A DNA stretch of 32,000 nucleotides from an uncultured Actinomycetota bacterium (GCA_963767375.1 CAVYDT010000008.1:2428641-2460640); one strand, 5' to 3'; shown: positions 9,067 to 32,000, counted from the first letter of the stretch. A program made the numbers and translations. Notes: generated by a model from the sequence alone, not told the origin.

Positions 9067-9088
9067 CGAATGGAGATAGGAAACTCCC

Positions 9089-11000: not shown

Positions 11001-11006
11001 TCGGGG

Positions 11007-13153: not shown

Positions 13154-13220
13154 TGCGTTGGCCGTCATCCGCACACGATTGGCGGCCTTGCTAACACCAA
13201 CAAGAAAGGAAGGGAATCAA

Positions 13221-15840: not shown

Positions 15841-15843
15841 CTG

Positions 15844-16833: not shown

Positions 16834-16853
16834 GGTGCCTCCTCCGCTCATAA

Positions 16854-16905
16854 TTCTGGTGCATATCGGCACCAAAAGGTATTGTGGTGTCAGACTGCAC
16901 CAGAA
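16854..16905. promoter_or_regulatory. Nested inverted repeats built on the TGGTGC half-site (probable TetR operator pair)
   Basis: TTCTGGTGCA (16854-63) and TGCACCAGAA (16896-905) are perfect 10-bp inverted arms. Inside the span are TGGTGCatatcgGCACCA (16857-74) and TGGTGtcagactgCACCA (16885-902). The site lies between the divergent TetR and MpaB-like genes. Confidence 0.5.
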
Positions 16906-16936
16906 ATATCGATTGGTCAAGGGGTTCTGAGGCACA

Positions 16937-17599
16937 ATGCACTCAATGGCAACCGCGACCCGCGGCTACGGTGGCGTGACCGCTGAGCAACGACGCGCCA
17001 TCCGTCGCGCAGCACTGATTGAAGCAGCGCTCGATCTGTTCGCCGAAGACGGTGCACGGGCAGTGTCGAAACGTGCGGTGTGCGCACGTGCACGGCTCAA
17101 CGACCGTTACTTTTACGAGCATTTCGCTCACTCGGACGCGTTGCTCGAAGCGATTGCGCGCGACCTCACCGCCGAGGGACTCGAGGCGGTGAACGCCGCC
17201 ACGCGTAGCGTCGCATCCGATATCCGCGTGCAAGTCCACGCCATTGCTGACGCGGCTCTCGCTTTCCTGACCGCCGACCCGCGCCGCGGCCAGCTACTTC
17301 TGCGCTCTCATACCTCCGAAGTGCTGCAGCGCGCCCGCCTGGACAGCACCCGCGCAATTTCGACTGCGATGTCCGCGATGCTCAGGCAGCCGCTCGGCGC
17401 TTCCGCAGCCAGCCAACTCGACACCGATATGGCATCGTTTGCGCTCGTCAGCGGTGCCATGGAAGTGATCGCTGGTTGGCTACGCAGCGACTTCGACACC
17501 ACCCGCGAGCACGTCGCCGCTATTGTCGCCCGGTTGCTCTTGGCCGCCGCCGATGTCTCTAGCGCACTGCCTGGCTCAACGGGCAACGCCGTTCAATAG
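16937..17599 (+). CDS. TetR/AcrR-family transcriptional regulator
   Basis: N-terminal HTH: AALDLFAEDGARAVSKRAVCARARLNDRYFYEHFAHSDALLEA. Divergent from the MpaB-like operon. Confidence 0.85.
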   Translation: MHSMATATRGYGGVTAEQRRAIRRAALIEAALDLFAEDGARAVSKRAVCARARLNDRYFYEHFAHSDALLEAIARDLTAEGLEAVNAATRSVASDIRVQVHAIADAALAFLTADPRRGQLLLRSHTSEVLQRARLDSTRAISTAMSAMLRQPLGASAASQLDTDMASFALVSGAMEVIAGWLRSDFDTTREHVAAIVARLLLAAADVSSALPGSTGNAVQ

Positions 17600-17676
17600 C
17601 GGCGATGGCCCGTGCGTGATCGCGCCAGGTCACCCACCATCGATGACGAAGGTTCCCAGGAGGCACCCTTGCGGCG

Positions 17677-18309
17677 CTAGCTCGTCTGCAGACCGTCGAG
17701 AAGTGCGTTCAGCGCCTGGACCCCTTCGTCACGTGCCATGACCTGATCCGGCGAGTTCGCGATAAACAAAGCCGTCTCATCTGCGGCGGCCAGCAAGACA
17801 TGGGCGAGTGCGTTGACGGGTTGGCCCGATGCGAGGTCGCCTTCCTGCACGGCGCGCTCAAGCATTAAGCGGATGGCTCCAAGTCCGTAGAGGCTTTCAA
17901 GTTCGCGCCATTTGACCCAGCCCAGCACGGCAGGTCCGTCGATGAGAAGTATCCGCTGGACATGGGGCGTGAGGGAAGCGTCGAGGAACCCGATTAGACC
18001 CTGCCGCAATTGATTCAATGCCCCGTCTGCTGGATCCGCCAGGTTCTTCGCGGCCTCCATGACTAAGTCCTGCTCGACGGCGATGAACACCGCTTCGAAC
18101 AGTGCCTGCTTGTCGGCGAAGTGGTGATACAGCGCGCCTCTTGTGCCGACTCCGGCCTCTGCGACGACTTCTTCGGTGCCGGTGTGGTGATAGCCCTTCT
18201 CGACAAACAGCCGCCGGGCGGCATCGACAAGTGCGGCACGAGTGGCCTCGGCTTGCGCGGCACGTCGCGCCTTCGGGTCGAGCCTTTCCTGACCCCGTGG
18301 CATGACCAC
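17677..18309 (-). CDS. TetR/AcrR-family transcriptional regulator
   Basis: HTH: AARRLFVEKGYHHTGTEEVVAEAGVGTRGALYHHFADKQALFEAV. The start may be the ATG at 18303 rather than the GTG at 18309. Confidence 0.9.
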   Translation of the reverse strand: MVMPRGQERLDPKARRAAQAEATRAALVDAARRLFVEKGYHHTGTEEVVAEAGVGTRGALYHHFADKQALFEAVFIAVEQDLVMEAAKNLADPADGALNQLRQGLIGFLDASLTPHVQRILLIDGPAVLGWVKWRELESLYGLGAIRLMLERAVQEGDLASGQPVNALAHVLLAAADETALFIANSPDQVMARDEGVQALNALLDGLQTS

Positions 18310-18318
18310 AGCCTATTG

Positions 18319-18373
18319 CATACAGACTGTATGTCACATACAGTTCGCATGTCACATACAGCCCGTATGTGAC
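18319..18373. promoter_or_regulatory. Operator array of CATACAG/CTGTATG half-sites
   Basis: CATACAGaCTGTATG is a perfect 7-1-7 palindrome (18319-33). ATGTCACATACAG repeats directly at 18331-43 and 18349-61 (18-bp period). GTCACATACagcccGTATGTGAC is a 9-bp-arm palindrome (18351-73). The array lies between the TetR at 17677-18309 and the LEH-like gene. Confidence 0.6.
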
Positions 18374-18413
18374 GGCGCCAACTTTCGCTGCTCGCTGTAC
18401 GTGGAGGTTCGTT

Positions 18414-18833
18414 ATGTCTAATCCTGTCGACGTTGTCCGGAAGTTCTGCGCGCTGATGGAGCAGCGCAACCCGGAGGCTCTGAGGCCTCTGCTCGCCGAC
18501 GACGCGGTGTACCAGAACGTAGGGATGCCTGCGTGTACCGGAGTAGAGGCCATTGTCGAAAACATGGGAGCGCAGTTCTCGATGTTCCCCGACGCTTACG
18601 CATTCGAGATCGTGAACATCGCCAGCGATGGCCCAGTCGTTCTCACCGAACGACTTGACTACATCCAGGCACCCGACGGAACCAAACCCGCTGTACCTGT
18701 CATGGGCACATTCGTCGTTGACGGCGACGGCAAGATCGTCCGCTGGACGGACTATTTCGACGTGTCGTTGACGGTCAAGCTGTTGCAAGGCGAAGACATC
18801 AGCGCACTGGTCCCTGCCGCATCTGCAGGCTAG
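18414..18833 (+). CDS. Limonene-1,2-epoxide-hydrolase-like (LEH/SnoaL NTF2-fold) protein
   Basis: ATG 18414 follows GGAGG. VVRKFCALMEQRNPEALRPLLADDAVYQNVGMP...VLTERLDY...GTFVVDGDGKIVRWTDYFD matches the LEH-family pattern. Confidence 0.7.
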   Translation: MSNPVDVVRKFCALMEQRNPEALRPLLADDAVYQNVGMPACTGVEAIVENMGAQFSMFPDAYAFEIVNIASDGPVVLTERLDYIQAPDGTKPAVPVMGTFVVDGDGKIVRWTDYFDVSLTVKLLQGEDISALVPAASAG

Positions 18834-19045: not shown

Positions 19046-19096
19046 AGGCCGGACAGGGCCTTGAAAGTGACGGGTGACGGCTCACCCGGCGGCGGT

Positions 19097-19200
19097 GGCA
19101 TGCCCAGCGCCGCGATGACGCTCGACGTGTATGCCGACGTGTTCGAGTCCGACCTCGACACGGTCGCGGAGAATGTGGCCAAAATGTGGCCAGTGCAGCC
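19097..19200 (+). pseudogene. C-terminal remnant of a tyrosine recombinase (phage-type integrase)
   Basis: G-MPSAAMTLDVYADVFESDLDTVAENVAKMWP matches the very common actinobacterial integrase tail (LGHxSAAMTLDxYADLFDDDLDAVA). No catalytic domain lies upstream. It is read in the same frame as the methyltransferase fragment. Confidence 0.6.
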
Positions 19201-19755
19201 GAGTTCGGTCCTCCGTTCGAGGCCAAAATGGCCTCCTAACAGCGGATGTTCCGCCGGGGGCGGGTCAAGCCCCTGTCAGGATTGAGCTGTCCTGACGTCG
19301 CAGCTGAGGAGCCCGAAAAGCGCGTCTAGCAGCAGAAATTCATCACCATAGATCGCCGCAGATGACCGTAACTGTGGGCAAATCGTGGGCACAGAGTCGG
19401 TTATCAGATGCCGCGTCGACTGCCTGACGCACCCCGCGACCCCATGGCTCGATCAGCGACTTATGACAAAACCGGGCGTTCTCTAAAGGCTCAGTGCTGC
19501 GGGGTCGTCTCCCCGCCATAGTTCCGAGAGGCGAGGCTACGCACCGTCACCACCAAGGGTCAGGTATGCGCGCCGAGTGCGTCATGCGATAGCCGCGCGC
19601 ACAACCAGGGCAGAACCGTGGCCCCGATCGGGATCCAAGCACATCTCGAGTGATCGGCCCATACTGGAGGGGTGTCGACGTTTCATCGGCCCTAAGTCGC
19701 CCGCACTCGCCGAAAAGTACCGACAGGTCTTGCCGAGGCGGAAGTGGAGGACATA

Positions 19756-20643
19756 ATGATGATCTTTTACGCGCTGGCCGCAGCGTTCGGCCTTGGTGCG
19801 CTCTGGCTGGGCACAAGCGTTCGGGTCGTCAAGCAATTCGAACGAGGCGTCGTCTTTCGTTTCGGACGTGTGCAAACCGGTGTCCGCGGACCGGGGCTCA
19901 CGCTGCTGATTCCAGTCGCCGATCGCCTCGAGAAGGTGAATATGCAGATCATCACGATGCCGGTGCCCGCGCAGGATGGCATCACCCGCGATAACGTGAC
20001 CGTGCGTGTGGATGCAGTCATCTATTTTGATGTTGCGGATCCGGTGCGTGTGGTTGTCGGCGTACAGGACTATGTGTCCGCTATTGGCCAGGTCGCGCAG
20101 ACATCGCTGCGGTCGATCATCGGCAAAAGCGACCTGGACGACCTACTCTGCAACCGCGAGGGTCTCAATCAGGGCCTGGAGTTGATGATCGACAGCCCCG
20201 CGGTGGGCTGGGGTGTTCACATCGACCGTGTGGAAATCAAAGATGTAGTACTGCCGGATTCGATGAAGCGGTCGATCGCGCGCCAAGCCGAGGCGGAGCG
20301 TGAGCGGCGGGCTCGGGTGATCACTGCCGACGGTGAACTGCAGGCGTCTGAAAAATTGGCCCAAGCGGCCCAGACGATGACCGCGCACCCGGCTGCGCTT
20401 CAGTTGCGGCTGTTGCAAACCGTGGTTGAGGTCGCCGCCGAGAAGAACTCCACCCTGGTGCTTCCCTTCCCCGTCGAACTGCTCCGGTTCTTGGAACGAG
20501 CGACACCGGAAGCGTCCGGGAGCTCTGACGACGACGCCGCTACACGCTCCACCTCGGCCGCAGCTTCGAAGAGCGAGATGCCGAAGCTGGACCCGCCGCA
20601 GATCCCCGACGACGCCAGCGCTCTGCGAGTCGACACACGCTGA
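19756..20643 (+). CDS. SPFH/band-7 (stomatin-prohibitin-like) membrane protein
   Basis: N-terminal TM, then VVKQFERGVVFRFGRV...PGL..LIP..D.......Q....PAQD.ITRDNV.V.VDAV.Y, the canonical SPFH core. It continues with an EAERERRA coiled coil. ATG 19756 follows GGAGG. Confidence 0.9.
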   Translation: MMIFYALAAAFGLGALWLGTSVRVVKQFERGVVFRFGRVQTGVRGPGLTLLIPVADRLEKVNMQIITMPVPAQDGITRDNVTVRVDAVIYFDVADPVRVVVGVQDYVSAIGQVAQTSLRSIIGKSDLDDLLCNREGLNQGLELMIDSPAVGWGVHIDRVEIKDVVLPDSMKRSIARQAEAERERRARVITADGELQASEKLAQAAQTMTAHPAALQLRLLQTVVEVAAEKNSTLVLPFPVELLRFLERATPEASGSSDDDAATRSTSAAASKSEMPKLDPPQIPDDASALRVDTR

Positions 20644-20890
20644 ATCTGGTCGAATTACTGGCTGGCCCAACGAATCTCACGGAATCGCTGTCGGGCTATG
20701 TTGCGGCGTGGCCGGACCTGCTGATCTCCGACTATCCATCCAGTCGGTGTCGAGGGCATCTCGTTGCAGACCGCCTAGAGCTGCGAATGACTTTTGAGAG
20801 CCTCGTATCTCGTCTTTTTCGAGACCGCTTTCAGTTCTGTTCGGGCCTGGTCGATTGGTCGCATGCGTGGTCACCGTGGCGGCGGCGGAG

Positions 20891-21358
20891 CTACGCGGGC
20901 AGATCCACCCGCAGCGCCAGGTGCTCATCGAGTATCCGGCGCAGCGCGGCGTCCATCGGATGCGCGGATGCGAGGTCGCGGCCGAGCCGGCTGTCCACTA
21001 CGACTACCGTGCCCTCACGCAGTTCGGCGGTGTCGACCTGGTCGACGAACGGATCGAACAATGCGGGCGGCGTGGCCAGGTAATACAGCGCCCGGCGCGA
21101 CTCGTTCAACCCGGCGGCATACATCAGTCCGTGTTGGGTGATCACGAAGAGTTCCGAGGCGATCCTGGCGTTCGGGGTCTCGGCTTTGCCCCATGCCATT
21201 GCGGCGCACCGGGTCTGTGCCAATCTATCGGGGACGTCGTCAGTCAGCGTGAGTAATTTGTCGACGAGTGCTCCACCCATTCGCGGATATGCGTCGATGG
21301 CGGTTCTGAAGTAGCGCCGGAAGATCTCGCCGAAAAAGTCGTACGGTTGCTCGCTCAT
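20891..21358 (-). CDS. Hypothetical 155-aa protein resembling the central part of the glucose-6-phosphate dehydrogenase N-domain (probable decayed zwf fragment)
   Basis: LYYLATPPALFDPFV...VVVVDSRLGRDLASAHPMDAALRRILDEHLALRVDLPA* is colinear with the G6PD blocks fYLA.PP.lF ... EKPFGhDLaSA..LN ... RIDHYLGKE. The catalytic blocks are degenerate, and the Rossmann start and C-terminal domain are missing. Confidence 0.45.
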   Translation of the reverse strand: MSEQPYDFFGEIFRRYFRTAIDAYPRMGGALVDKLLTLTDDVPDRLAQTRCAAMAWGKAETPNARIASELFVITQHGLMYAAGLNESRRALYYLATPPALFDPFVDQVDTAELREGTVVVVDSRLGRDLASAHPMDAALRRILDEHLALRVDLPA

Positions 21359-21550
21359 CGCAGCTCCCCAGGTTTCAGACGGACACCTCAATTGTGCGCC
21401 CGTACGGTCAGCTGAGCACGTGTTTGGCCAGGACGGCGGGCTAGCAGCATCGCGACCACCATCGATGTCCTCATCAACCTGAAGACAGGCGCCTGGACCG
21501 TCCTCTGGGTCTGGCTATTTTTCGCTGGGGCCAGCGCACCCGCGCCACCG

Positions 21551-21650
21551 AGCACAATGCGCAAAAGCTCAAAATCGCCTGTTGCGTGGGCTATTGCGCA
21601 CAAGCGAGTCACGGCCGCTGCCAATCCCTAGCCTTCGAGCTCAACAGGTT
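21551..21650 (+). repeat. Locus-specific intergenic repeat module, copy A (shortest and most diverged)
   Basis: It shares the invariant CACAATGCGCAAAA block, ACAAGCGAG and TTCGAGCTCAAC with copies B-D. It lies upstream of the alpha/beta hydrolase gene. Confidence 0.65.
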
Positions 21651-21692
21651 GTCGGATTCGTTCCCGACATCGACACCGACAAGGAGTACACA

Positions 21693-22745
21693 ATGTTGAC
21701 TCGGCCATATCCGACTACGGCATCTCCCGCGTATCGTCCGACGACGCCTTTGCCCGCCTCGGGCGGTGGCAGTCTCGACAGTACGGCCGCGCATCTGCAG
21801 CGATTGGACGCGAAGCGCGATGGCTATGCCGAGCGAACGGTTATCACGAGTGACGGCGTGCGGCTGGCGGTCCGCGACTACGGCTCTGCCGGTGCTCGCG
21901 ACCACACGGTCGTCCTGCTGCACGGTCTTTGCCTGACACAGTCGAGCTGGGCACTCCAAGTTCGCCACTTGGTGAGTCGGTGGGGCAACAGCATACGAAT
22001 CATCACCTACGATCACCGCGGCCACGGCAATTCGGGCGGCGCGGAAATGCACACCTACCGGATCGACCGACTCGCTGCTGACCTCGCCGAGGTGCTGACC
22101 GTTCTGAACGTCACGGGCCCGGTCACTCTGGCGGGACACTCGATGGGCGGAATGACAGCGCTGGCATACCTCGGCCGTCCCGCCGACGATCGTCCGGTGG
22201 AACCGCACGGCCTGGTCCTGGTTGCCACCGCGGCTGGCCGTCTCGCGGAGCGAGGCCTCGGCCGGTTGCTGGCCACCCGCGCCACTGGGATGCTGTTCGA
22301 TCTCGTTGACCACATGCCCCGGCGCATGGACCAGGTGATCCAGGGTCTCGTGCGGCCGGTCTGCAAAGGTGTAATCAGATATGCCGGCGCCGCGCGGGGC
22401 GGCGCCGCCGCAGTCACAGCATCCGCCCTCCACACAAACTCTTTGACGACTGCGGCCGGCTTCCTTCCCAGCCTGAAGCGATACGACCAGTATCAGACGC
22501 TTGCCTCCATTACCGCAAAGACAATCGTCATCAGTGGCGGAGCGGACATGACGACCCCAGCCGACCACGCGCGCGACCTAGTCGCCGCCATCCCGGGTGC
22601 TACCCATCTGCACCGCCCCACCGCCGGGCACATGATTCTCCAGGAGGAATCACACCGCGTCAGCAGCGCAATCGACGGCGTGGTGGGCATGCACCGCCGA
22701 TCCGTGCGTAGGGCACCGTCGCAACGTATGTGCTGCGCCGTCTAA
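21693..22745 (+). CDS. Alpha/beta-fold hydrolase
   Basis: VVLLHGLC oxyanion region, GHSMGG nucleophile elbow and C-terminal AGHMILQEE His. ATG 21693 follows AAGGAG. Pro/Thr-rich N-terminus. Confidence 0.85.
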   Translation: MLTRPYPTTASPAYRPTTPLPASGGGSLDSTAAHLQRLDAKRDGYAERTVITSDGVRLAVRDYGSAGARDHTVVLLHGLCLTQSSWALQVRHLVSRWGNSIRIITYDHRGHGNSGGAEMHTYRIDRLAADLAEVLTVLNVTGPVTLAGHSMGGMTALAYLGRPADDRPVEPHGLVLVATAAGRLAERGLGRLLATRATGMLFDLVDHMPRRMDQVIQGLVRPVCKGVIRYAGAARGGAAAVTASALHTNSLTTAAGFLPSLKRYDQYQTLASITAKTIVISGGADMTTPADHARDLVAAIPGATHLHRPTAGHMILQEESHRVSSAIDGVVGMHRRSVRRAPSQRMCCAV

Positions 22746-22920
22746 ATGGCTGCGTGCGTATGAAAGCCGTTCGCGGCGCGCGATTCTGGGCGACCAGACG
22801 GCCGGAGACTCAGGCCAATTCGGACGGTCCGATTGATGTGCAACCCACGCTTTGATGCGGTCGTAGCGTCCGGTCGCTGACCGATCGAGGCAGCCGGTGC
22901 GCGCGTCGGTTCGGTCTGAC

Positions 22921-23070
22921 GTCGCGGGTGAACACAATGCGCAAAACTTCGAAATCGTCGCTTATTCCGACTATCGCCCACAAGAGCGACATCGCTGTAA
23001 GCCCGCCGTAAGTTCTAAATCAACGAATAACTGAACACACCGCACGATCGCAGCGGGAAAAGATTCACCC
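22921..23070 (+). repeat. Locus-specific intergenic repeat module, copy B
   Basis: GTCGCGGGTGAACACAATGCGCAAAACTTCGAAATCGTCGCTTATTCCGACTATCGCCCACAAGAGCGAC..., alignable with copies C and D over ~150 bp. Upstream of the condensation-domain gene. Confidence 0.8.
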
Positions 23071-23158
23071 GATCGCGACGAACCATTCGCGATTAGCCGT
23101 TCCGCCATTCTAACGCCGCGCAATAAACGTCGGCATCACACGGACAAGGATTAAGGAA

Positions 23159-24607
23159 ATGGTCGCACTGGGCAGCATCACCGGATGGCAGCCGGCAGAC
23201 GGTTTGGTTACGACTTGGATGGCCTCACCCGCGACACGCGAAGCGGCTCGGAATGCGCGGCGAAGCGATCTACCACCGAGCTACCAGAGGAGTCAGCACC
23301 TCCAGGCAGCCCACGAATACAAGGCGAGGGGCATGCAGCTACCACGCCTGATGGTCGTGGCGTGGGACATACCCGGCGTGTGTGACATTTCGGCAATGAC
23401 GGCAACGATCAACGCGCACGTGCGTCGTCACGATGCGTATCACGATTGGTTCCAAATCGAAAACGGCGCCTTTGTCCGTGGGACGATCGACAATCCCGAG
23501 GTCATCGAATTTGCCCCCACGAATTTCGGACATATGCACGCTGAACAAATACGCACGCACGCGTTATCGACGACGCCGGAGACACTTGAGTGGGACTGCT
23601 TCACATTTGGCATCGTCCAGCACACTGACTATTTCACGTTCTACGCCAGTGTCGACCATCTCCACATCGACGGTATGTCGGCCGGCCTGATCTTCGTCGA
23701 CATCCACTTGATGTACCAGGATCTGTCAAAGGCCGTGCATCGACCCAGCATGTTTCCGCAGGTCGCGAGCTACCGCAGCTACGCGGCACGGCAGCGCGAC
23801 AAGGTGACGAGCCTGACCCTGTCGTCGCCTGAGATCAGGGACTGGATCGAGTTCGCGCAGGACACCGACGGCGACTGGCCGAAATTCCCGCTACCGGTCG
23901 GTGATACGTGGACCAATAACAAAGGCGACTTCCTGACGGTCGACTTGTTGGACGATGTCGAGACGGAGTCTTTCGACACCGCATGCACCGAGGCCGGTGT
24001 TCGGTTCAGCGGGGGTGTTCTGGCGTGCGCAGCGCTGGCCGACCACGAGTTGACCGGCACCGAGACATACCACGGATTCACACCATCCGACACGCGGATG
24101 CCTGGCATCGACACGATGACTGTGGGTTGGTTCGCCAGCCTGATTCCGATCACGGTGCCGACGGGCATCTGCTCGTTTCCCGCGGCGGCCCGGGCTGCGC
24201 AGAAATCGTTCGATGACGCCAAACACCTTGCCAGCGTGCCGATTAAACGAGTCCTCGAGCTGGCGGCCCAGCACCGACTGAGGATCAATCCGCCATCGCC
24301 TCACGCAATGATGGTGTCCTTCATGGATTTACGTAAAATACCGCTCGCCGCATTATTCGGCGAGACCAATTTCGGTACCTACGGCGACAATTTGTCGCAC
24401 GGTGGGATCAACTTGTGGATCAACCGCCACGCTGACAAGACCACAGCGACGATCTCCTTTCCGGATAACCCCGTCGCGCGTGAGTCGGTGCATCGCTACA
24501 TCGCGGCGTTGACCCAGGCGTTCGCGCGCGTCAACACCACCTCGGACTGGGTGAGTGCGGTTGCAGACCATGCGAACTCGGGGCACGGCATACCTGTTCT
24601 CAGCTAG
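23159..24607 (+). CDS. Condensation-domain (HHxxxDG-type) acyltransferase, PapA/NRPS-C-like
   Basis: Active-site motif SVDHLHIDGMSAG. N-terminal PPSYQRSQHL resembles the C-domain C1 motif. 482 aa. AAGGATTAAGGA RBS. GC is visibly lower than in the neighbouring genes. Confidence 0.8.
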   Translation: MVALGSITGWQPADGLVTTWMASPATREAARNARRSDLPPSYQRSQHLQAAHEYKARGMQLPRLMVVAWDIPGVCDISAMTATINAHVRRHDAYHDWFQIENGAFVRGTIDNPEVIEFAPTNFGHMHAEQIRTHALSTTPETLEWDCFTFGIVQHTDYFTFYASVDHLHIDGMSAGLIFVDIHLMYQDLSKAVHRPSMFPQVASYRSYAARQRDKVTSLTLSSPEIRDWIEFAQDTDGDWPKFPLPVGDTWTNNKGDFLTVDLLDDVETESFDTACTEAGVRFSGGVLACAALADHELTGTETYHGFTPSDTRMPGIDTMTVGWFASLIPITVPTGICSFPAAARAAQKSFDDAKHLASVPIKRVLELAAQHRLRINPPSPHAMMVSFMDLRKIPLAALFGETNFGTYGDNLSHGGINLWINRHADKTTATISFPDNPVARESVHRYIAALTQAFARVNTTSDWVSAVADHANSGHGIPVLS

Positions 24608-24628
24608 CAACGAAGGGGCCTTAGGAAA

Positions 24629-25978
24629 ATGAGCAACATACTTGATCTGGTCGACCAGACCTTCTTTCGCGTCGAGCGGGCGGCCGCAGTCACCAACGTG
24701 ATTCAGTGTGTCTGGGTTTATGACCGCCCGGTCGGCATCGATGGACTGCGCCAGTTCCATCACCATCTGCAGCGGGGGCGGTTATCCCGTCGCATCGAGC
24801 GCTCACCGTTGCCGTTCGGCCGGCATCGCTGGGTCTCGCCTGGTGATCAGTCCGATCTCGAGGTCGCTACGCCTCGGCCGCGTGAAGAATTCGACGCCTG
24901 GCTGAACGAGCAGAGCAACACCTCCATCGATCCCGAGCACGGACCCGGGTGGCACCTCGCAGTGCTGCCCTTCATCGACGGCGGCGCGGGGGTGAGCTTG
25001 GTCGCCGCACATTGCCTGAGCGACGGCGTCGGGTTGTGCGAGGCGGTGGCGGACGCGGCTTGCGGCTCCGACAACGCAATGAGCTGGCCTGCTGCCGGGT
25101 CTCGCCCGCGCTGGCAGGCCCTGCGGGAGGACGCCCGCCAAACCGTGCGGGACATCCCCGAGATCGGCCGCGCCGTCGCCGCCGCAGCACGATTTGTCCG
25201 GCATAACCTCGGCCGTGCGGGATCTGCTACCCCGACACCTGCGCCGACCGCCGGCGCCGACGAGCGCATCACTGTCCCAACGGCAATGATCTTCGTGGAT
25301 GCCGACGAGTGGGACGCCCGTGCACACTCACTCGGAGGGACCAGCAACACCCTTCTCGAGGCATTGGCCGCCCGCCTCGCACAGCGAGTCGGACGGGTCA
25401 CTGCAGACGGCTCAGTCACCTTGACGATGCCCATCAACCAGCGCACCGCCGGCGATACCCGCGCCAACGCCATCACGAACGTCGACATCACGGTCGACCC
25501 CGCACCCGCAACGACGGATCTGCGCGAGATCCGGGCCGCAACCAAGCAAGCACTGATCCGCTCTCAGGAGCAGCCCGACGAACGGTGGACGCTGCTGCCT
25601 CTCGTTCCGCTGGTGCCTGAGGGGCTGGGCCGGCGATGGGTCGGCGCGGCCACCAACAGTGCGATCAGCGTGGGCGCATCCAACGTCGGTGTGGTCAACC
25701 CGGCCGTCAACCGGCCAGACGGTACGGACGCCGACCATTTCGCCATGAAGTCGCTCGGCCTGGGTATGACCACGACGACGATGCACCAGCTCGGCGGGCT
25801 GCTGTCTTTGCTCTCCGGAAGGGCGCACGGACGGGTCTTCGTCTCGGTCGTTGCGTATCAGCCGGACCGCCCCAACTCAAACGACCAACTGCAACAGCGC
25901 CTTTCGAGCGTTCTGAGCGAATTCTCGCTCACCGCCACGATCGGCTGGCCATGCAATGAGCCGGTGGGGGCGCGGTAG
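24629..25978 (+). CDS. WS/DGAT-like CoA-dependent acyltransferase, tandem paralog 1
   Basis: Motif VAAHCLSDGVG (single-His HxxxDG). N-terminal LDLVDQTFF (compare LSPLDAxFL of WS/DGAT). C-terminal ASNVG...VSVVAYQ block (compare the NVPGP region). 449 aa, 21 nt after the previous stop. Confidence 0.75.
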   Translation: MSNILDLVDQTFFRVERAAAVTNVIQCVWVYDRPVGIDGLRQFHHHLQRGRLSRRIERSPLPFGRHRWVSPGDQSDLEVATPRPREEFDAWLNEQSNTSIDPEHGPGWHLAVLPFIDGGAGVSLVAAHCLSDGVGLCEAVADAACGSDNAMSWPAAGSRPRWQALREDARQTVRDIPEIGRAVAAAARFVRHNLGRAGSATPTPAPTAGADERITVPTAMIFVDADEWDARAHSLGGTSNTLLEALAARLAQRVGRVTADGSVTLTMPINQRTAGDTRANAITNVDITVDPAPATTDLREIRAATKQALIRSQEQPDERWTLLPLVPLVPEGLGRRWVGAATNSAISVGASNVGVVNPAVNRPDGTDADHFAMKSLGLGMTTTTMHQLGGLLSLLSGRAHGRVFVSVVAYQPDRPNSNDQLQQRLSSVLSEFSLTATIGWPCNEPVGAR

Positions 25979-26002
25979 GCATCACCCGCTGATGACCCTG
26001 GT

Positions 26003-26156
26003 GTCGCGGGTAAGCACAATGCGCAAAACTACGAAATCGTCGCTTATTCCGACTATCGCTTACAAACGCGACAGAGGGGCAAGCGGCGCGGTAATTTCGA
26101 GTTCAACAAACAACAGAAATACGTCGCAAGATCTACTGCGGGAACAGAATTCACGC
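26003..26156 (+). repeat. Locus-specific intergenic repeat module, copy C
   Basis: GTCGCGgGTAAGC (26003-15) and GCTTACaaaCGCGAC (26058-72) are inverted arms around CACAATGCGCAAAACTACGAAATCGTCGCTTATTCCGACTATC. The copy lies between paralogs 1 and 2. Confidence 0.8.
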
Positions 26157-26267
26157 TAGCGCCAAAAGTCATTCACGAACATCCGTTTTTTGCCATGGAT
26201 GACATTGCCCACCAAGCGAATTCGGATGAGCAGTACCCATAGGCAACTAACAAGAAAGGCGTTGGAA

Positions 26268-27623
26268 ATGAGCAACGTACTTGATCTGATCGACCAGACC
26301 TTCTTTCGCCTCGAGGGGGCGGCCGGAGTCGGGCAGTCTGTCTGGGTATATAACCGCCCGGTCGACATCGACGGACTGCGCCGGTTCCATCACCACCTTC
26401 AGCGGGGGCGGTTATCCCGCCGAATCGAGCGCTCGCCCTTGCCGTTCGGGCGCGATCGCTGGGTGTCGCCCAGCGATCAGTCGGACCTCGAGATCGCGGC
26501 GCCCCGGCCGCGCGAAGAATTCGACGGCTGGCTCAACGAGCAGGCCAACATCCCCCTCGATGCCGAGCACGGACCCGGCTGGCACCTCGCGGTGCTCCCC
26601 TTCACCGACGGCGGCGCGGGGGTGAGCCTAGTCCTCACGCATTGCATCACGGACGGCGGCGGAGGGGCCTTGGCCGTGGTGGAAGCGGCTTTCGGCTACG
26701 ATCACCCACTCAACTGGCCTGCTGCCGGGTCACGCCCGCGGTGGCGAGCGCTGCGCGAGGATGCCCGCCAAACCGTGCGCGACATCCCCGCAATCCGCCG
26801 CGCCGTCGTCGCCGCAGCACGATTCGCCCGGGCTAACCGCGGCGGCACCGTATCAGCCGCTTCGCCCGTTTCAAAGGCACCTGCGCCGAGCGCCGGAGCC
26901 GACGAGATCATCACGCTCCCAACCGCAACGATCTTTCTCGATGCCGAGGAGTGGGACACCCGCGCGCACGCACTCGGAGGGACCAGCAACACCCTGTTCG
27001 CGGGATTGGCGGCCCGCCTCGCCCAGCGACTGGGACGAGTCGCCGCAGACGGCTCGGTCACCTTGGCGGTACCCGTCAACGAGCGCACTGCGGACGATAC
27101 CCGCGCCAACGCGATCACGATTCTCGACATCACGGTCGACCCTGCACCCGTGACGACGGACCTGCGCCAGATCCGGGCCGCAACAAAGCAAGCGCTGATC
27201 CGACACCGGGAGGTGCCCGACGAACGGCAGACACTGCTGCCCCTGGTTCCCCTGCTGCCGCGGCGGCTCGCCAGGCGAATGGTCGCCACGGCCACCGGCG
27301 GCGCGACCAACATCGCTGTCCCATCCAACCTCGGCACGGCCCCCCCGGCCGTCAACCAACCAGACGGCACAGACGCCGACTACGTCGCCGTGCGGTTTCT
27401 CTACCCGGGTATGACCAAGGCGATGGTGCACCAGCTCGGCGGGGTGCTGTCTTTGCACTCGGGAAGGGTGGACCGACAGATCTTCGTCTCGGTCGTTGCG
27501 TACCAGCCGGACCGCCCCAATTCGAATGACGACTTGCAACAGCGCATTTCGACCGTTCTGCGCGAGTTCTCGCTCACCGCTACGACGGGCTGGCCGTGCA
27601 ATGAGCCAATGGCGGCGGCGTAG
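26268..27623 (+). CDS. WS/DGAT-like CoA-dependent acyltransferase, tandem paralog 2
   Basis: Motif LTHCITDGGGG. The start is set at ATG 26268 (MSNVLDLIDQTFF), matching the other paralogs and following an AAAGG RBS. The ORF-track start at 26190 adds 26 non-homologous residues. Confidence 0.75.
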   Translation: MSNVLDLIDQTFFRLEGAAGVGQSVWVYNRPVDIDGLRRFHHHLQRGRLSRRIERSPLPFGRDRWVSPSDQSDLEIAAPRPREEFDGWLNEQANIPLDAEHGPGWHLAVLPFTDGGAGVSLVLTHCITDGGGGALAVVEAAFGYDHPLNWPAAGSRPRWRALREDARQTVRDIPAIRRAVVAAARFARANRGGTVSAASPVSKAPAPSAGADEIITLPTATIFLDAEEWDTRAHALGGTSNTLFAGLAARLAQRLGRVAADGSVTLAVPVNERTADDTRANAITILDITVDPAPVTTDLRQIRAATKQALIRHREVPDERQTLLPLVPLLPRRLARRMVATATGGATNIAVPSNLGTAPPAVNQPDGTDADYVAVRFLYPGMTKAMVHQLGGVLSLHSGRVDRQIFVSVVAYQPDRPNSNDDLQQRISTVLREFSLTATTGWPCNEPMAAA

Positions 27624-27659
27624 TAGGCGTGGGCAAGCAACAAGAAAAGGAGCTTAGAA

Positions 27660-29093
27660 ATGAGCAACGTACTCGATCTGGTCGACCAGACCTTCTTTCT
27701 CGGCGAGCAAGCGACCGGCGTCACCATGGTGCTGCAGTGCGTGTGGGTCTATGACCGCGCGATCGATACCGACGGTCTGCGGCGGTTCCATCACCATCTT
27801 CAGCGGGGCCGGTTATCCCGCCGCATCGAACGCTCGCCCTTGCCGTTCGGCCGCCATCGCTGGGTCTCGCCCAGCGATCAGCCCGACCTCGAGATCGTCG
27901 CGACGCCTCGGCCGCGCGCAGAATTCGACGCCTGGCTCAGCGAGCAGGCCAACACCACCCTGGACGCCGAGCACGGACCCGAATGGCACCTCGCGGTGCT
28001 CCCCTTCACCGACGGCGGCGCGGGAGTGAGCTTGGTCATCTCGCATTGCCTCACCGACGCCGTCGGGTTGTGCGAGGCGTTGACGGACGCGGCTTCCGGC
28101 CGCCACGACCCCATCAGCTGGCCCACTTCCGGCTCGCGCCGGCGGTGGCGAGCACTCCGCGAGGACGCCCGCCAAACCGCGCGCGACCTCCCCGGTATCG
28201 GCGGAGCCGTCGTCGCCGCAGCACGATTGGCCCGACGTAACCGCGGCAGCGCGGGATCAACCGCCCTGCTAAACGCCGGGTCACCTGCACCGCTCGCCGG
28301 AGCGCATGAACGCATCACCCTCCCATCGGCAACGATCTTTGTCGATGCCGATGAGTGGGACGCCCGCGCACATTCACTGGGAGGGACCAGCAACACCCTT
28401 CTCGCGGGATTGGCGGGCCGCCTCGCCCAGCGAGTGGGCCGGGTCACCGCAGACGGCTCAGTCACCTTGGGTATGCCCGTCAACCTGCGCACCGCCGGCG
28501 ATACCCGCGCCAACGCAGTCACCAATGTCGACATCACAGTGGACCCCGAACCCGCGGCGATAGACCTGCGCGGGATGCGGGCCGCAACAAAGCAAGCGCT
28601 GATCCGCTCTCAGGAGGCGCCCGACGAACGGTTGGCGCTGCTACCCGTCGTTCCTCTGTTGCCGCAGTGGCTGGTCAAGCGAATGGTCAACCTGGCCACT
28701 AGCAGTGCGACCAGCGTCGTCTCATCCAACTTCGGTGTGGTCAACCCGGCCGTCTACCGGCCAGACGGAACAGACGCCGACCACTTCGCGATAAAGGGTT
28801 CCAACTTGGGTGTGACCAAGGCGATCATGCACCGCACCGGCGGAATCATGGCGTTGCTCTCGGGAAGATCGGATCGACAGGTCTTCGTTTCGGTCCTTGC
28901 GTATCAGCCGGACCGCACCAACTCGAATGACACTCTGCGGAAAGACCTTTCGAGCGCTCTGAGCGACTTCTCGCTCACCGCCACGATCGGCTGGCCATGC
29001 CCTGGGCCAGTGAGAAAAGCGCGCGTCGCGACCACCAGGGAACAAGTAAATGCGATTGCAGACCAAGTGGATTCGTCAAGCCGTATGGCCTGA
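27660..29093 (+). CDS. WS/DGAT-like CoA-dependent acyltransferase, tandem paralog 3 (C-terminal ~25-aa extension)
   Basis: Motif ISHCLTDAVG (Gly to Ala after the Asp). 477 aa. It starts 36 nt after paralog 2. A unique tail KARVATTREQVNAIADQVDSSSRMA follows the shared WPCPGPV end. Confidence 0.75.
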   Translation: MSNVLDLVDQTFFLGEQATGVTMVLQCVWVYDRAIDTDGLRRFHHHLQRGRLSRRIERSPLPFGRHRWVSPSDQPDLEIVATPRPRAEFDAWLSEQANTTLDAEHGPEWHLAVLPFTDGGAGVSLVISHCLTDAVGLCEALTDAASGRHDPISWPTSGSRRRWRALREDARQTARDLPGIGGAVVAAARLARRNRGSAGSTALLNAGSPAPLAGAHERITLPSATIFVDADEWDARAHSLGGTSNTLLAGLAGRLAQRVGRVTADGSVTLGMPVNLRTAGDTRANAVTNVDITVDPEPAAIDLRGMRAATKQALIRSQEAPDERLALLPVVPLLPQWLVKRMVNLATSSATSVVSSNFGVVNPAVYRPDGTDADHFAIKGSNLGVTKAIMHRTGGIMALLSGRSDRQVFVSVLAYQPDRTNSNDTLRKDLSSALSDFSLTATIGWPCPGPVRKARVATTREQVNAIADQVDSSSRMA

Positions 29094-29130
29094 CAGCCCA
29101 ACCAAGTGACAAGGAAAGGACCTTAAGAAA

Positions 29131-30513
29131 ATGAACAACGTACTCGATCTGATCGACCAAAGCGCGTTTCTCGCCGAGCGAGCGACCGGAGCCACCAACG
29201 TGATTCAGTGTGTCTGGGTGTACAACCGTGCGATCGACATCGACGGTCTGCGCCAGTTCCATCACCATCTTCAGCGGGGGCGGTTGTCCCGCCGCATCGA
29301 ACGCTCACCCTTGCCGTTCGGACGCCATCGCTGGGTCTCGCCCAGCGGTCAGTCCGACCTGGAGATCGTCGCCACGCCTCGGCCGCGTGAAGAATTCGAT
29401 GCTTGGCTCAGCGAGCAGGCCAACACCCCCCTGGATTCCGAGCACGGACCCGGATGGCACCTGGCGGTGCTCCCGTTCACCGACGGCGGCGCGGGGCTGA
29501 GTTTCGTTATCTCACATTCCCTCATCGACGGCGTCGGGCTGTGCGAGGCGTTGGCGGACGCGGCTTCCGGCCGCCACGACCCCATCAGCTGGCCTGCTGC
29601 CGGGTCACGCCGGCGCTGGCAAGCACGGCGGGAGGACGCCCGCCAAACCGCGCGCGACATCCCCGCCATCGGCCGCGCCGTCGTTGCCGTGGCACGATTC
29701 GCAAGGCGTAGCCGCGGTGCTGACGGATCTGGCACCCAGCTGCCTAGCGCGCCGCGTTCGCCGATCGTCGGAGCTCACCAGCTCGTCGCTCTGAATAAGG
29801 CAATGATCTTCGTCGACGCCGACGAGTGGGACGCCCGCGCACACTCACTCGGGGGGACCAGCAACGCGCTGCTCGCGGGATTGGCGGCCCGTCTCGCCCA
29901 GCGAGTAGGACGGGTCGCCGGGGACGGCTTCGCCACCCTGGAGATACCCGTTAACGAGCGCGCCGCCGGCGATACCCGCGCCAATGCGATGACAAGTGTC
30001 GACATCACGGTCGACCCCGAACCCGCGGCGACGGACCTGCGCGAGATCCGGGCCGCAATCAAGCAAGCGCTGATCCGCTATCAGGAGGCCGGCGACGAAC
30101 GGCGGGCAATGCTGCCCCTCGCTCCTCTGCTGCCGCAGTGGGTGGTTAGGCGAATGGTCAGCGTGGCCCTCGGCGGCGCGACGACCAGCGGATCATCCCA
30201 CCTCGGTGCGATCAACCCGGGCGTCAACCGGCCAGACGGCACAGACGCCGACTACTTCGCCGGAAACTCTTTCTTCCTGGGGGCGACCGGGACCGGGGCG
30301 CCCGTGGCGACGATAGCCCGCACCGGCGGGCTGCTGGGGTTGCTCTCGGGAAGAGTGCACGGACGGGTCTTCCTCTCGGTCGTTGCGTATCAGCTGGCCC
30401 GTTCCGACTCGAATGACGACTTGCGGGAGCATATTTCGAGCGTTCTGAGTGACTTCTCGCTCACCGCCACGATCGGCTGGCCATGCCCTGAGCCAGTGGG
30501 CGGGGCGCGGTAG
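29131..30513 (+). CDS. WS/DGAT-like CoA-dependent acyltransferase, tandem paralog 4
   Basis: Motif ISHSLIDGVG. 460 aa. It starts 37 nt after paralog 3, and the RBS and start context are conserved (AAGGAAAGG...AAAATGAACAACGTACTCGATCTG). Confidence 0.75.
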   Translation: MNNVLDLIDQSAFLAERATGATNVIQCVWVYNRAIDIDGLRQFHHHLQRGRLSRRIERSPLPFGRHRWVSPSGQSDLEIVATPRPREEFDAWLSEQANTPLDSEHGPGWHLAVLPFTDGGAGLSFVISHSLIDGVGLCEALADAASGRHDPISWPAAGSRRRWQARREDARQTARDIPAIGRAVVAVARFARRSRGADGSGTQLPSAPRSPIVGAHQLVALNKAMIFVDADEWDARAHSLGGTSNALLAGLAARLAQRVGRVAGDGFATLEIPVNERAAGDTRANAMTSVDITVDPEPAATDLREIRAAIKQALIRYQEAGDERRAMLPLAPLLPQWVVRRMVSVALGGATTSGSSHLGAINPGVNRPDGTDADYFAGNSFFLGATGTGAPVATIARTGGLLGLLSGRVHGRVFLSVVAYQLARSDSNDDLREHISSVLSDFSLTATIGWPCPEPVGGAR

Positions 30514-30524
30514 ACGCCCCCCGC

Positions 30525-30686
30525 CTGGCGGGTGAGCACAATGCGCAAAATCGTGGAATCGGCGCTAACTCCGACTATCGCTTACAAGCGCGACACGGGT
30601 GCAAGCGGCGCCGTAAGTTCGGTCTCGACCAGACAACTCGCTAGGCGTCCGTACGTCGCCCGGTTCGCCAAGGGGCGGGGAATCCT
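30525..30686 (+). repeat. Locus-specific intergenic repeat module, copy D
   Basis: CTGGCGGGTGAGCACAATGCGCAAAATCGTGGAATCGGCGCTAACTCCGACTATCGCTTACAAGCGCGAC..., alignable to copy C over ~160 bp. It lies between paralog 4 and mmpL. Confidence 0.8.
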
Positions 30687-30742
30687 GGCTTTGCTGCCGC
30701 TCCTGCTTACCCAGGCTTGACACACCAATGAAGGGCTTCACC

Positions 30743-32000
30743 ATGTTCAAAAAGTCCGCCGCGCCCAAGACCTCTGCCGCTGCCAAGACGCGCATCGGTG
30801 CGTTTTCGGTGTTGGGTCGCTTCGTCGTGCGTGCGCCCTGGCTCATCATCGCCGCCTGGATCGCTGTGGTCGCCGTGCTGGCCGTGGCCCTCCCCCCACT
30901 GACGAAGGTGGTCGAAAGCCATCCACTACAGCCGCTGCCGCCCAAAGCTATGGCGGCGGCCGAGCAGATGGCCAAGGATTTCGGTGAATCCGCCCAGAAT
31001 GTCCTGATTGTCGTACTCACCGACAATCGGGGTCTGCAACCTGCTGATGAGGACGCCTACCGCAAGCTCGCCGATACGTTACGCAGCAAGACCAACGATG
31101 TGACCGGCGTGCAGGACATCGCTACCACACCCGCACTGCGTCCATTGATGGTCAGCGCGGACAACAAGGCGTTTTACATGGCGGTGGCCCTGAGGGCGCC
31201 TATCGGATCCCCTGAGTCCTCGCAGGCCTACCAACGGATCACAGAAATCGCCAAACGCTCCACCGCGGGCTCCTCGCTGACCGCGGAGGTGACGGGACAG
31301 GCTGCCATGGCCGGCGACCTGTCGATCGTCTCCGCCCGCGACATGCACATCATCGAGATGGTCACCGCATTGTTCGTGCTGATCATCCTGCTGGTGGTCT
31401 ACCGGCGACCTGTGACCGTGTTGCTGCTGTTGATCACCGTCGGAATTTCGGTCGCGTCGGCCCAGGGCGTGGTGTCCGGGCTAGCCCTGCTCGGACTCGG
31501 GGTGTCCACGCTGACGATCGTGTTGATGACGGCGATGATCGTGGGCGCCGGCACCGACTATGCCGTCTTCTTGATCAGCCGCTACCACGAGTACATCCGG
31601 TCCGGCATGGACTCCGACCTGGCCGTACAAAAAGCACTGAGCTCCATCGGCGAGGTCATCGCGGCGTCGGCGGCCACCGTTGCCGTCACCTTTCTCGGCA
31701 TGGTCTTCACCCGCATGCCCGCGTTCACGAGTATTGGTCCGGCGCTCGCGGTTTCGATCGGGGTCGCATTTCTCGCCGCCGTCACGCTGTTGCCCGCCCT
31801 ACTCGTGCTCGCCGGTCGACGCGGATGGGTGACGCCGCGACCGGCGCTCACCGGCCGCCTGTGGCAACGGTCTGCCGTTCAGCTGGTTCGCCGGCCCAAA
31901 GCGCATCTGCTGGTTAGTCTGTCGGTGTTGATCGCGCTGGCCGGCTGCGCGGCCTTCCTCCAGCCCACCTTCAACGACCGCCTGCAATTGTCGCAGTCAG
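30743..32000 (+). CDS. mmpL: MmpL-family RND lipid transporter (5' part; continues beyond the window)
   Basis: The frame stays open to the window end. N-terminal TM, periplasmic domain, then TM bundle with the hallmark MMPL block IVGAGTDYAVFLISRYHEYIRSG. The start is ATG 30743 (after AAGGG) or the in-frame ATG 30728. No mmpS lies upstream. Confidence 0.9.
   Translation, partial: MFKKSAAPKTSAAAKTRIGAFSVLGRFVVRAPWLIIAAWIAVVAVLAVALPPLTKVVESHPLQPLPPKAMAAAEQMAKDFGESAQNVLIVVLTDNRGLQPADEDAYRKLADTLRSKTNDVTGVQDIATTPALRPLMVSADNKAFYMAVALRAPIGSPESSQAYQRITEIAKRSTAGSSLTAEVTGQAAMAGDLSIVSARDMHIIEMVTALFVLIILLVVYRRPVTVLLLLITVGISVASAQGVVSGLALLGLGVSTLTIVLMTAMIVGAGTDYAVFLISRYHEYIRSGMDSDLAVQKALSSIGEVIAASAATVAVTFLGMVFTRMPAFTSIGPALAVSIGVAFLAAVTLLPALLVLAGRRGWVTPRPALTGRLWQRSAVQLVRRPKAHLLVSLSVLIALAGCAAFLQPTFNDRLQLSQS

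Follow-up and report, generated by a model that had tools for sequence, protein, structure and literature searches.

A PapA, tandem acyltransferase, and MmpL locus as a candidate system for assembly and export of a multiply acylated mycobacterial envelope glycolipid

We analyzed a 32,000-nucleotide stretch of DNA from an uncultured Actinomycetota bacterium (GCA_963767375.1, CAVYDT010000008.1:2428641-2460640; hereafter, the window), the right-hand part of which (21.6-32.0 kb, + strand) comprises seven consecutive open reading frames (ORFs) that encode an alpha/beta hydrolase, a PapA-family acyltransferase, four tandem acyltransferase paralogs, and an MmpL transporter. Collectively, our observations suggest that this locus is probably an operon that makes and exports a multiply acylated envelope glycolipid, most likely one based on trehalose. 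The general kind of locus, an MmpL-coupled acyl-glycolipid locus, is known; what is new is a version organized around an uncharacterized acyltransferase family, members of which we also find in lipooligosaccharide (LOS) clusters and on polyketide synthases (PKSs). Literature searches for a cluster of papA, wax-synthase, and mmpL genes returned nothing relevant.

An earlier reading of the window made from the sequence only had described an acyltransferase-dense lipid assembly and export locus of seven same-strand genes, each with a diagnostic motif. All seven ORFs and all of the motifs were found where that reading placed them, and the gene content, together with acyltransferase folds and profile matches, bears out the description. 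The G+C content at third codon positions is 0.74-0.80 across the seven ORFs, as in real genes of this genome. The features are compiled in Table 1, where the start codon of paralog 2 was adopted from the gene call in a related metagenomic contig (L001; related loci are referred to by L numbers); the C-terminal tail of paralog 3 is 18 residues longer than that of its L001 counterpart. The alpha/beta hydrolase, which has an additional weak match to Thioesterase, is confined to the closest relatives of the locus (L001, L002, L003, and L017) and is an accessory gene that lies outside the conserved core.

Table 1. Features of the acyltransferase locus and its left border, in positions of the window.
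Feature	Position	Strand	Length	Motifs, matches, and remarks
Conserved non-coding block	22927..23045	+	~120 bp	5' of papA; contains AATCGTCGCTT..CTAT..ACAAG.GCGAC; inverted repeat GTCGCT/AGCGAC
Palindrome	23071..23093	+		ATCGCGA-N8-TCGCGAT; between block and papA start; read from sequence
PapA-family acyltransferase	23159..24607	+	482 aa	catalytic DHLHIDG; Condensation PF00668 E 2e-13
Paralog 1	24629..25978	+	449 aa	AHCLSDG; orthogroup P1; GLC-type motif AHCLSDGVGLCEA; TIGR02946 45 bits
Paralog 2	26268..27623	+	451 aa	THCITDG; orthogroup P2; GGC-type motif THCITDGGGGALA; no WS/DGAT match
Paralog 3	27660..29093	+	477 aa	SHCLTDA; P3/P4 clade; SHCLTDAVGLCEA; TIGR02946 55 bits
Paralog 4	29131..30513	+	460 aa	SHSLIDG; orthogroup P5; SHSLIDGVGLCEA; PF03007 25 bits; modeled protein
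MmpL RND transporter, N-terminal part	30743..32000	+	419 aa	gene cut by window end; GAGTDYAVFLISRYHE; PF03176 (MMPL) E 2e-93
Alpha/beta hydrolase	21693..22745	+	350 aa from ATG	ORF opens 21582; nucleophile elbow GHSMGG; Abhydrolase_1 E 7e-24
Glucose-6-phosphate dehydrogenase N-terminal-domain remnant	20891..21514	-		flank; G6PD_N E 2e-8, profile positions 104-173 of 183

The four paralogs are mutually 66-74% identical, and each carries an active-site motif of the form A/T/S-H-x-x-x-D-G/A, in which the His and Asp of HxxxD are kept and Ser, Thr, or Ala stands in for the first His of the canonical HHxxxDG. An AlphaFold2 model of paralog 4 built from a deep alignment of 82 family members (pLDDT 92, pTM 0.92) replaced an earlier one from a shallow alignment of sequences at least 66% identical (pLDDT 64). 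Foldseek comparison of this model with the Protein Data Bank (PDB) recovered the PapA5-like protein AzeD (8s6l; E 3.5e-18), condensation (C) domains of nonribosomal peptide synthetases (NRPSs; E about 1e-14), a Marinobacter wax ester synthase/diacylglycerol acyltransferase (WS/DGAT; 6chj; 8e-14), and PapA5 (1q9j; 2e-13), and the enacyloxin chain-release C domain (6cgo) is also a fold match for the family. The paralogs are thus confidently predicted to adopt the two-lobed fold of the coenzyme A (CoA)-dependent acyltransferase/condensation superfamily. Whether they would fall inside this fold had been set as a test beforehand; model and structure search place them there, and all five of the HxxxD acyltransferases counted in the earlier reading have or match it.

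Across the 82 aligned family sequences, Asp133 never varies, and conservation of His129 and Gly134 is 90% or higher. A search of PDB sequences with the family profile matched only 8s6l (3e-6) and 6chj (4.5e-4), and just 19 of the 82 members touch PF03007. An exhaustive HMMER search of 1.84 billion representatives returned 809 proteins at E ≤ 1e-3 and 292 at E ≤ 1e-30; nearly all of those with source names are 'hypothetical protein' entries from Mycobacterium or Mycolicibacterium. These profile and fold comparisons indicate that the paralogs form a small, separate family that has no Pfam model of its own and that is equally close to PapA5-like proteins and to NRPS C domains.

The paralogs had previously been described as WS/DGAT-like, and they could in principle be ordinary wax-ester or triacylglycerol synthases that make storage lipid, with their proximity to papA and mmpL being incidental. 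The shared fold and the existence of weak matches stand: TIGR02946 (WS/DGAT) scores 45-55 bits for three of the four paralogs (none for paralog 2), the WS_DGAT_cat model PF03007 scores 25.0 bits against a threshold of 23.6 for paralog 4 only, and some database names of family members read 'diacylglycerol O-acyltransferase'. However, the paralogs fail the curated WS/DGAT cut-off of 310 bits, PF06974 (WS_DGAT_C) matches none of the four, and the family profile fits a PapA5-like protein better than a WS/DGAT. Moreover, the order papA, paralogs, mmpL is strictly conserved between species, and the family recurs in glycolipid clusters, all of which makes a storage-lipid role very improbable.

The enzyme encoded directly upstream of the paralogs had been read as a condensation-domain enzyme; it does match the Condensation family, and homology to PapA2 refines this assignment. 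The protein aligns over residues 5-458 with M. tuberculosis PapA2 (PDB 6AEF; E 1e-128, 45% identity over 450 residues), and its DHLHIDG motif aligns with the catalytic H166 and D170 of PapA2. Because this homology runs end to end and the catalytic His and Asp are kept, we assign the enzyme, by alignment, to the PapA (polyketide-associated protein A) family as a member of the PapA1-4 clade. PapA2 is a trehalose-2-sulfate acyltransferase with a PapA2-restricted zinc site (C19/H21/H124/H135) and a proline, Pro171, beside the catalytic Asp (PMC6996325). The window enzyme has T, M, and F at the positions of zinc ligands C19, H21, and H124, keeps only H135, and has Gly in place of Pro171. Identity as a PapA2 orthologue is ruled out by the replacement of three of the four zinc ligands and of Pro171. 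Many orthologs of the enzyme bear a PapA3-type name assigned automatically by the Joint Genome Institute (JGI). Only solved structures served as subtype references for PapA and MmpL, the match lists being saturated by close environmental orthologs.

These substitutions bear on the identity of the acceptor, which might be another hydroxylated scaffold (a long-chain diol, another sugar, or a sulfated sugar), in which case the product would belong to a different lipid class. The limited identity to PapA2, the unconserved zinc site and Pro171, and a PapA5-like protein as the best structural match of the paralogs are consistent with such an acceptor, and PapA5 esterifies a diol. Against this, characterized PapA1-4-clade enzymes use trehalose or trehalose sulfate as acceptor, the orthologs carry the automated PapA3-type name, and LOS clusters with the same arrangement of papA and family genes make acyltrehalose cores. 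In addition, a glycoside phosphorylase of family GH65 and a HAD hydrolase adjoin the locus in two close relatives, which is a weak hint of disaccharide metabolism. On balance, a non-trehalose acceptor appears quite unlikely.

The exact sequence of paralog 4 was not found by database look-up, but a 97%-identical protein (P0001) led to the metagenomic contig L001, which matches the window at 99.6% identity over 19061-28997 and at 97.8% over 29059-32000. Full-length MmpL in L001 is 1052 aa long with two MMPL domains; with solved structures as references, its match to MmpL4/5 reaches E 1e-132 and that to MmpL3 just 1e-21. By these matches, the transporter is a resistance-nodulation-division (RND) pump that is MmpL4/5-like rather than of the MmpL3 branch. 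No MmpS partner gene was found with the MmpL of the locus. Downstream of mmpL, L001 encodes a convergent response regulator (Response_reg and HTH domains), a sensor kinase (sCache_3_2, SPOB_a, and HATPase domains), and a large pro-kumamolisin-type protein.

The sequence-only reading had noted that no pks or fadD gene was visible, an observation that is borne out and that extends downstream via L001 and to related loci. No pks, fadD, or carrier-protein genes were found downstream of mmpL in L001, and for the window, L001, L019, and the other related loci with flanks checked, neither pks nor fadD was found within 10 kb to the left or right. Large flanking ORFs of related loci, considered as possible FadD or PKS genes, encode a Ser/Thr kinase with NHL repeats, FAD oxidoreductases, NMO, an acyl-CoA dehydrogenase (ACAD), thiolase, MeaB, and other proteins. 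No sulfotransferase was found in the window, and no cutinase-like (Chp1/Chp2) or PE-domain acyltransferase was found in the locus, where the sole hydrolase is the Abhydrolase_1 protein.

Outside of their orthologous group, the closest relatives of the paralogs (44-47% identity) include domains located after the acyl carrier protein (ACP), at the C-terminus of mycobacterial type I PKSs (P0245, residues 1568-2006; P0246, 1730-2169; P0247, 813-1240; L020 and L021). The fusion architectures are AT-DH-ER-KR-ACP-domain, FAAL-ACP-KS-AT-ACP-domain, and AT-KR-ACP-domain (AT, acyltransferase; DH, dehydratase; ER, enoylreductase; KR, ketoreductase; FAAL, fatty acyl-AMP ligase; KS, ketosynthase). These domains look like ester-forming chain-release domains that are apparently uncharacterized and, because they are fused after the ACP of PKSs, the family would be expected to take acyl thioesters and release esters.

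Such relatives also favor a variant of the pathway in which polyketide (methyl-branched) chains come from a PKS and a FadD encoded elsewhere and the paralogs off-load the PKS ACP directly, and other family members do adjoin MAS-like PKS and FadD genes. Yet none of the loci examined has a PKS or FadD gene within 10 kb on either side, pks and fadD remain immediate neighbors in known PKS-dependent acyltrehalose loci, and PapA2 itself takes plain palmitoyl-CoA (PMC6996325). Supply of chains by a PKS acting in trans is therefore unlikely in our estimation.

Stand-alone relatives that share 40-45% identity with the locus paralogs were identified in glycolipid clusters. In M. elephantis (L024; family genes 8632-13698), the order is pks, PapA, two family genes, a methyltransferase gene, a third family gene, and genes for a glycosyltransferase, MmpL, and an ABC protein. 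In M. goodii (L026; 10001-12809), a pks gene (2096 aa) and PapA precede two family genes, followed by FadD, GT2, and, further on, a 635-aa protein, a pyruvyl transferase, methyltransferases, and a glycosyltransferase; in M. haemophilum (L027), the cluster comprises pks, FadD, one family gene, glycosyltransferases, and PapA. Two further clusters have no adjacent PapA: that of M. gallinarum (L022) includes methyltransferases, a sulfotransferase, GT28, FadD, and a PKS, while that of M. paraense (L025) includes glycosyltransferases, the family gene, and an MmpS-MmpL-MmpL array.

The gene order in M. goodii matches that of the published M. smegmatis LOS cluster MSMEG_4727-4737. Within that cluster, MSMEG_4727 is a MAS-like PKS (PMC11139207), MSMEG_4729 has been described as 'a hypothetical protein, predicted acyltransferase', and MSMEG_4734 is 617 aa (bioRxiv 10.64898/2026.03.26.714485). 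By synteny and published gene sizes, and not by sequence, the family would correspond to MSMEG_4729/4730. M. marinum makes no LOS once papA4 is disrupted; the study assigns LOS acylation to no acyltransferase other than PapA4, and LOS carries three acyl chains (PMC5706390). The family members that follow papA in LOS-type clusters (2-3 copies) are candidates for the remaining LOS acylation steps.

These comparisons qualify the earlier statement that the gene order is not a recognized one; synteny with a characterized lipid cluster, named beforehand as a result that would count against that reading, is found in part. An order of papA followed by tandem family genes is known from LOS-type clusters (M. 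goodii, MSMEG_4727-4731) and is a motif common to them; what holds is that the version in the window is paralogous and is devoid of pks, fadD, and glycosyltransferase or other sugar-decorating genes. Because identities are 40-46% and pks, fadD, and glycosyltransferase genes are missing, the locus is a paralogous variant and not an LOS cluster: by sequence comparison, it represents a paralog of the LOS acyl-core module that is devoid of those three types of gene.

When species-representative genomes were scanned with the PapA as query, 17 loci emerged, hosted by Mycobacterium metagenome-assembled genomes (MAGs), M. colombiense (two strains), Mycobacterium sp. HNNTM2301, and sp. E3198. The conserved core across them is papA, one to five paralogs, and mmpL, flanked by variable genes (ACAD and NMO, thiolase and MeaB, MIP and TetR, a Ser/Thr kinase, or GH65 and HAD). 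One paralog is present in L004, L007, L009, and L016, two in L012, four in the window, L001, and L013, and five in L003, L005, L006, L010, L011, and L015. Neighbor-joining reconstruction revealed positional orthogroups (P1-P5) that are common to different species, with single-copy genes adjoining the P2 clade. Just past the catalytic motif, the copies divide into a GGC type (HxxxDGxGGC[L/M]A) and a GLC type (HxxxD[G/A]xGLC[E/Q]A), the class of the fourth paralog of L003 having been set from the neighbor-joining data rather than from a regular-expression match. Each intact locus analyzed has exactly one GGC-type copy and zero to four GLC-type copies, and the GGC type, to which paralog 2 belongs, is the sole copy in single-paralog loci. 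Ratios of nonsynonymous to synonymous substitution (dN/dS) relative to orthologs are 0.28-0.49 for the paralogs (0.28 for paralog 1 and 0.42-0.49 for paralog 2) and 0.19-0.25 for the PapA-like enzyme, which indicates that all copies have been maintained by purifying selection.

Despite the orthogroups that span species, synonymous divergence (dS) among paralogs within the genome (0.34-0.37) is lower than that between the papA of the window and its M. colombiense ortholog (0.78), and identity to L001 falls from 99.6% to 97.8% at the junction of paralogs 3 and 4 (about 29000). The low paralog dS and the drop in identity suggest that the tandem copies have undergone gene conversion or are mosaic. 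Two of the single-paralog loci, L007 (10001-10429) and L009 (10001-10603), have an extra partial PapA-like fragment (44-46% identity) just 5' of the complete papA. In the MAG loci L002, L014, and L017, paralog, mmpL, and regulator genes appear split, which may reflect either pseudogene formation or sequencing or assembly indels.

Given the missing PKS, FadD, and glycosyltransferases of LOS-type clusters, the gene remnant in the left flank, and the fragmented appearance of L002, L014, and L017, it might be argued that what is present is an LOS-like cluster in decay, reduced to a fragment that no longer yields a product. Evidence to the contrary comes from the intact ORFs and the HxxxD motif that is kept in all copies, in more than 10 species, from dN/dS values well below 1, and from a conserved upstream element and a linked regulator pair. 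Further, all of the fragmented copies come from MAG assemblies, in which sequencing or assembly error is possible. Decay without product is accordingly an explanation to which we attach hardly any probability.

The upstream element is a conserved non-coding block 5' of papA that is near-invariant among loci whose proteins share just 65-70% identity. Its exact core pattern occurs once, 5' of papA, in 11 loci (e.g., L001 3881-3918, L003 9837-9874, L012 9803-9840, and L013 9783-9820) and in no single-paralog or LOS-type locus. L005 and L010 are pattern-negative multi-paralog loci; L005, the one of the two that was aligned, has a copy of the block with one mismatch. A palindrome between the block and the start of papA recurs in L017, L013, and L015 and approximately in L004. 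The block was also considered as an RNA element, for which no Rfam family and no covariation or compensatory pairs were detected. The simplest reading is that the block is probably a promoter or operator, and we regard it as a candidate for such. A CitA/DcuS-like two-component system adjoins all seven multi-paralog loci for which the flank is covered (L001, L002, L012, L013, L017, L019, and L014, in the last of which it lies on the opposite side of the locus) and is absent from the three single-paralog loci with flank coverage. Upstream motif and two-component system co-occur, and together they probably control expression of the operon.

The gene content, motifs, folds, conservation, copy-number pattern, and family relationships described above are the basis on which we infer acceptor, donors, serial action, export substrate, and regulation. 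The PapA-family enzyme would put the first acyl chain or chains on a sugar, probably trehalose, in the cytoplasm, and one GGC-type core enzyme and three GLC-type accessory enzymes would then attach more acyl chains, with acyl-CoA or acyl-ACP as donor. Since no dedicated PKS or FadD is encoded nearby, ordinary fatty acyl chains would be the likeliest donors. The paralogs would thereby fill the role that Chp1, Chp2, or the PE acyltransferase has for sulfolipid-1 (SL-1), polyacyltrehalose (PAT), or trehalose polyphleates (TPP), with a different fold and on the cytoplasmic side of the membrane. The MmpS-less MmpL would move the product across the plasma membrane, by analogy with MmpL8 and MmpL10, which export partly acylated trehalose lipids (PMC12507525). 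We also count in favor of this proposal the co-occurrence of the family with PapA, PKS, FadD, glycosyltransferases, and sometimes MmpL in M. elephantis, M. goodii, and M. haemophilum.

Several points weigh against the trehalose-based proposal. Identity to PapA2 is just 45%, with three of four zinc ligands replaced and a Gly in place of the acceptor-site Pro171. A PKS gene at another place in the genome would be compatible with the absence of pks and fadD within 10 kb, and the paralogs have PKS-linked proteins as their closest relatives. Finally, serial action on one molecule looks the same, by sequence, as parallel action with different donors.

A bolder form of the proposal, which we put forward tentatively and consider possible rather than probable, is that the paralogs represent a third, hitherto unrecognized solution to the polyacylation of mycobacterial glycolipids: a cytoplasmic, regiospecific, thioester-dependent series of one ancestral GGC-type enzyme and up to four GLC-type enzymes. 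Together with PapA, such a series would yield, independently of a PKS, a tetra- to hexa-acylated lipid of the trehalose type that MmpL exports, with the whole switched on by the CitA-like system via the upstream operator, while MSMEG_4729/4730-like members would supply the second and third acyl chains of LOS.

The left flank of the locus had been interpreted as holding gene remnants and an integrase fragment compatible with an acquired island. The glucose-6-phosphate dehydrogenase (G6PD) remnant is real. The 'integrase fragment' is a tail of ~30 aa (about 19090-19230) whose resemblance to integrase was by eye; it has no Pfam, PHROG, or phage tblastn match, and nothing integrase-like was found in the other frames. 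DNA homology with the closest relatives begins at about 21495 and with distant relatives at about 22916-22928, and the left flank differs even between genomes with 94-98% identical PapA. More distant species have the locus in a recurring context that runs from NMO/ACAD to the two-component system. G+C content (0.58-0.68 vs about 0.64) is not atypical, and no tRNA was found. The variable flanks and the one remnant thus stand in the island interpretation, and the ordinary G+C content, the lack of a tRNA, and the unconfirmed integrase count against it. We view the locus as a variable accessory locus with a left border that was rearranged in this lineage, and these data lend weak support to recent acquisition.

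In L002 (4710-7846, -) and L017 (4688-7836, -), a GH65 glycoside phosphorylase of the trehalose/maltose/kojibiose phosphorylase family and a beta-phosphoglucomutase-like HAD hydrolase are encoded divergently, 5' of the alpha/beta hydrolase; the counterpart of that side in the window is the G6PD remnant and a Band_7 gene. Elsewhere in the window, 11426-13153 (+) encodes a PE-PGRS protein with a C-terminal His_Phos_1 histidine-phosphatase domain, from which it follows that the genome is that of a PE/PGRS-bearing Mycobacterium. Also 5' of the locus, a small gene cluster at 13843-18833 encodes a SnoaL-like cyclase, an AveC-like spirocyclase (E 2e-71), an MpaB/Lcp-type oxygenase, two TetR regulators, and a limonene-epoxide-hydrolase-like protein. 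About 13 kb 5' of the locus, a catabolic-looking block at 556-9066 that is not conserved beside the locus in other species encodes a short-chain dehydrogenase/reductase, a Rieske ring-hydroxylating oxygenase alpha subunit, a TauD dioxygenase, CMD, two acyl-CoA dehydrogenases, a flavin oxidoreductase, and an acyl-ACP thioesterase.

MmpL-coupled acyltrehalose lipids (SL-1, diacyltrehalose (DAT)/PAT, TPP, and LOS) shape the mycobacterial surface, phage adsorption, and host interaction. To our knowledge, the acyl chains of those that have been characterized always come from an adjacent PKS and FadD, and late acylation, where it has been assigned, is carried out by enzymes of the Chp or PE type. 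The present locus suggests a PKS-independent route, with a distinct and unstudied acyltransferase family carrying out the extra acylations. Characterizing this family would address which enzymes complete LOS acylation, and the series of one to five copies with fixed orthogroups could reveal how the number of enzymes relates to acylation state. The tractable carriers include M. colombiense, which belongs to the M. avium complex. The locus offers a testable candidate for unassigned acylation steps in mycobacterial glycolipids.

Among known systems, we did not count the glycosyl diacylated nonadecyl diol (GDND)/MmpL8 system of M. abscessus as evidence, since reviews give no locus content for it. 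WS/DGATs (AtfA, Tgs1, and the Marinobacter enzyme 6CHJ) resemble the paralogs in their two-lobed CoA-dependent acyltransferase-like fold, HxxxDG motif, and length of about 450 aa, with weak profile similarity. The paralogs differ from them in failing the profile thresholds, in having no WS_DGAT_C domain, in the replaced first His, and in a glycolipid/MmpL rather than storage-lipid context. PapA5 and the C-terminal chain-release domains of PKSs share the fold (1q9j, 6cgo), and post-ACP domains are 44-47% identical to the paralogs, which differ from the PKS C-terminal domains in being free-standing, in four tandem copies, and with no PKS nearby.

The SL-1 locus comprises papA2, chp1, sap, mmpL8, papA1, pks2, and fadD23. 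PapA2 of this system is the closest solved structure to the locus PapA, with which it shares the catalytic His and Asp; in contrast to the SL-1 locus, the locus in the window is without chp1, sap, pks2, and fadD23, and the zinc site and Pro171 of PapA2 are changed. The DAT/PAT locus of M. tuberculosis has the order pks3/4-papA3-mmpL10-chp2-fadD21; DAT/PAT and TPP products are polyacylated trehaloses, and the later acylations are carried out after export by Chp2 or PE, which are hydrolase-fold transesterases. As in the DAT/PAT and M. smegmatis TPP loci, papA and mmpL in the window lie on the same strand as one unit, and JGI ortholog names are of the PapA3 type. The locus differs from both in its tandem HxxxD acyltransferases between papA and mmpL and in having no pks or fadD.

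LOS-type clusters, the product of which is an acylated trehalose core, share with the locus a PapA-type enzyme and tandem acyltransferases of the same family (M. smegmatis/M. goodii, M. elephantis, and M. haemophilum), which directly follow papA in M. goodii and M. elephantis. The LOS-like cluster of M. elephantis also has an MmpL that is 48% identical to that of the locus. Family members (40-44% identity) and PapA (43-46%) of these clusters are paralogous rather than orthologous to the proteins of the locus. Unlike LOS clusters, the locus is without a MAS-like PKS (Pks5), FadD (FadD25-type), glycosyltransferases, methyltransferases, and pyruvyl transferase, the first three being absent from the window as a whole and from all flanks checked in related loci; it has instead four family copies (up to five in relatives) compared to two or three in LOS clusters, along with a two-component system and an upstream motif of its own.

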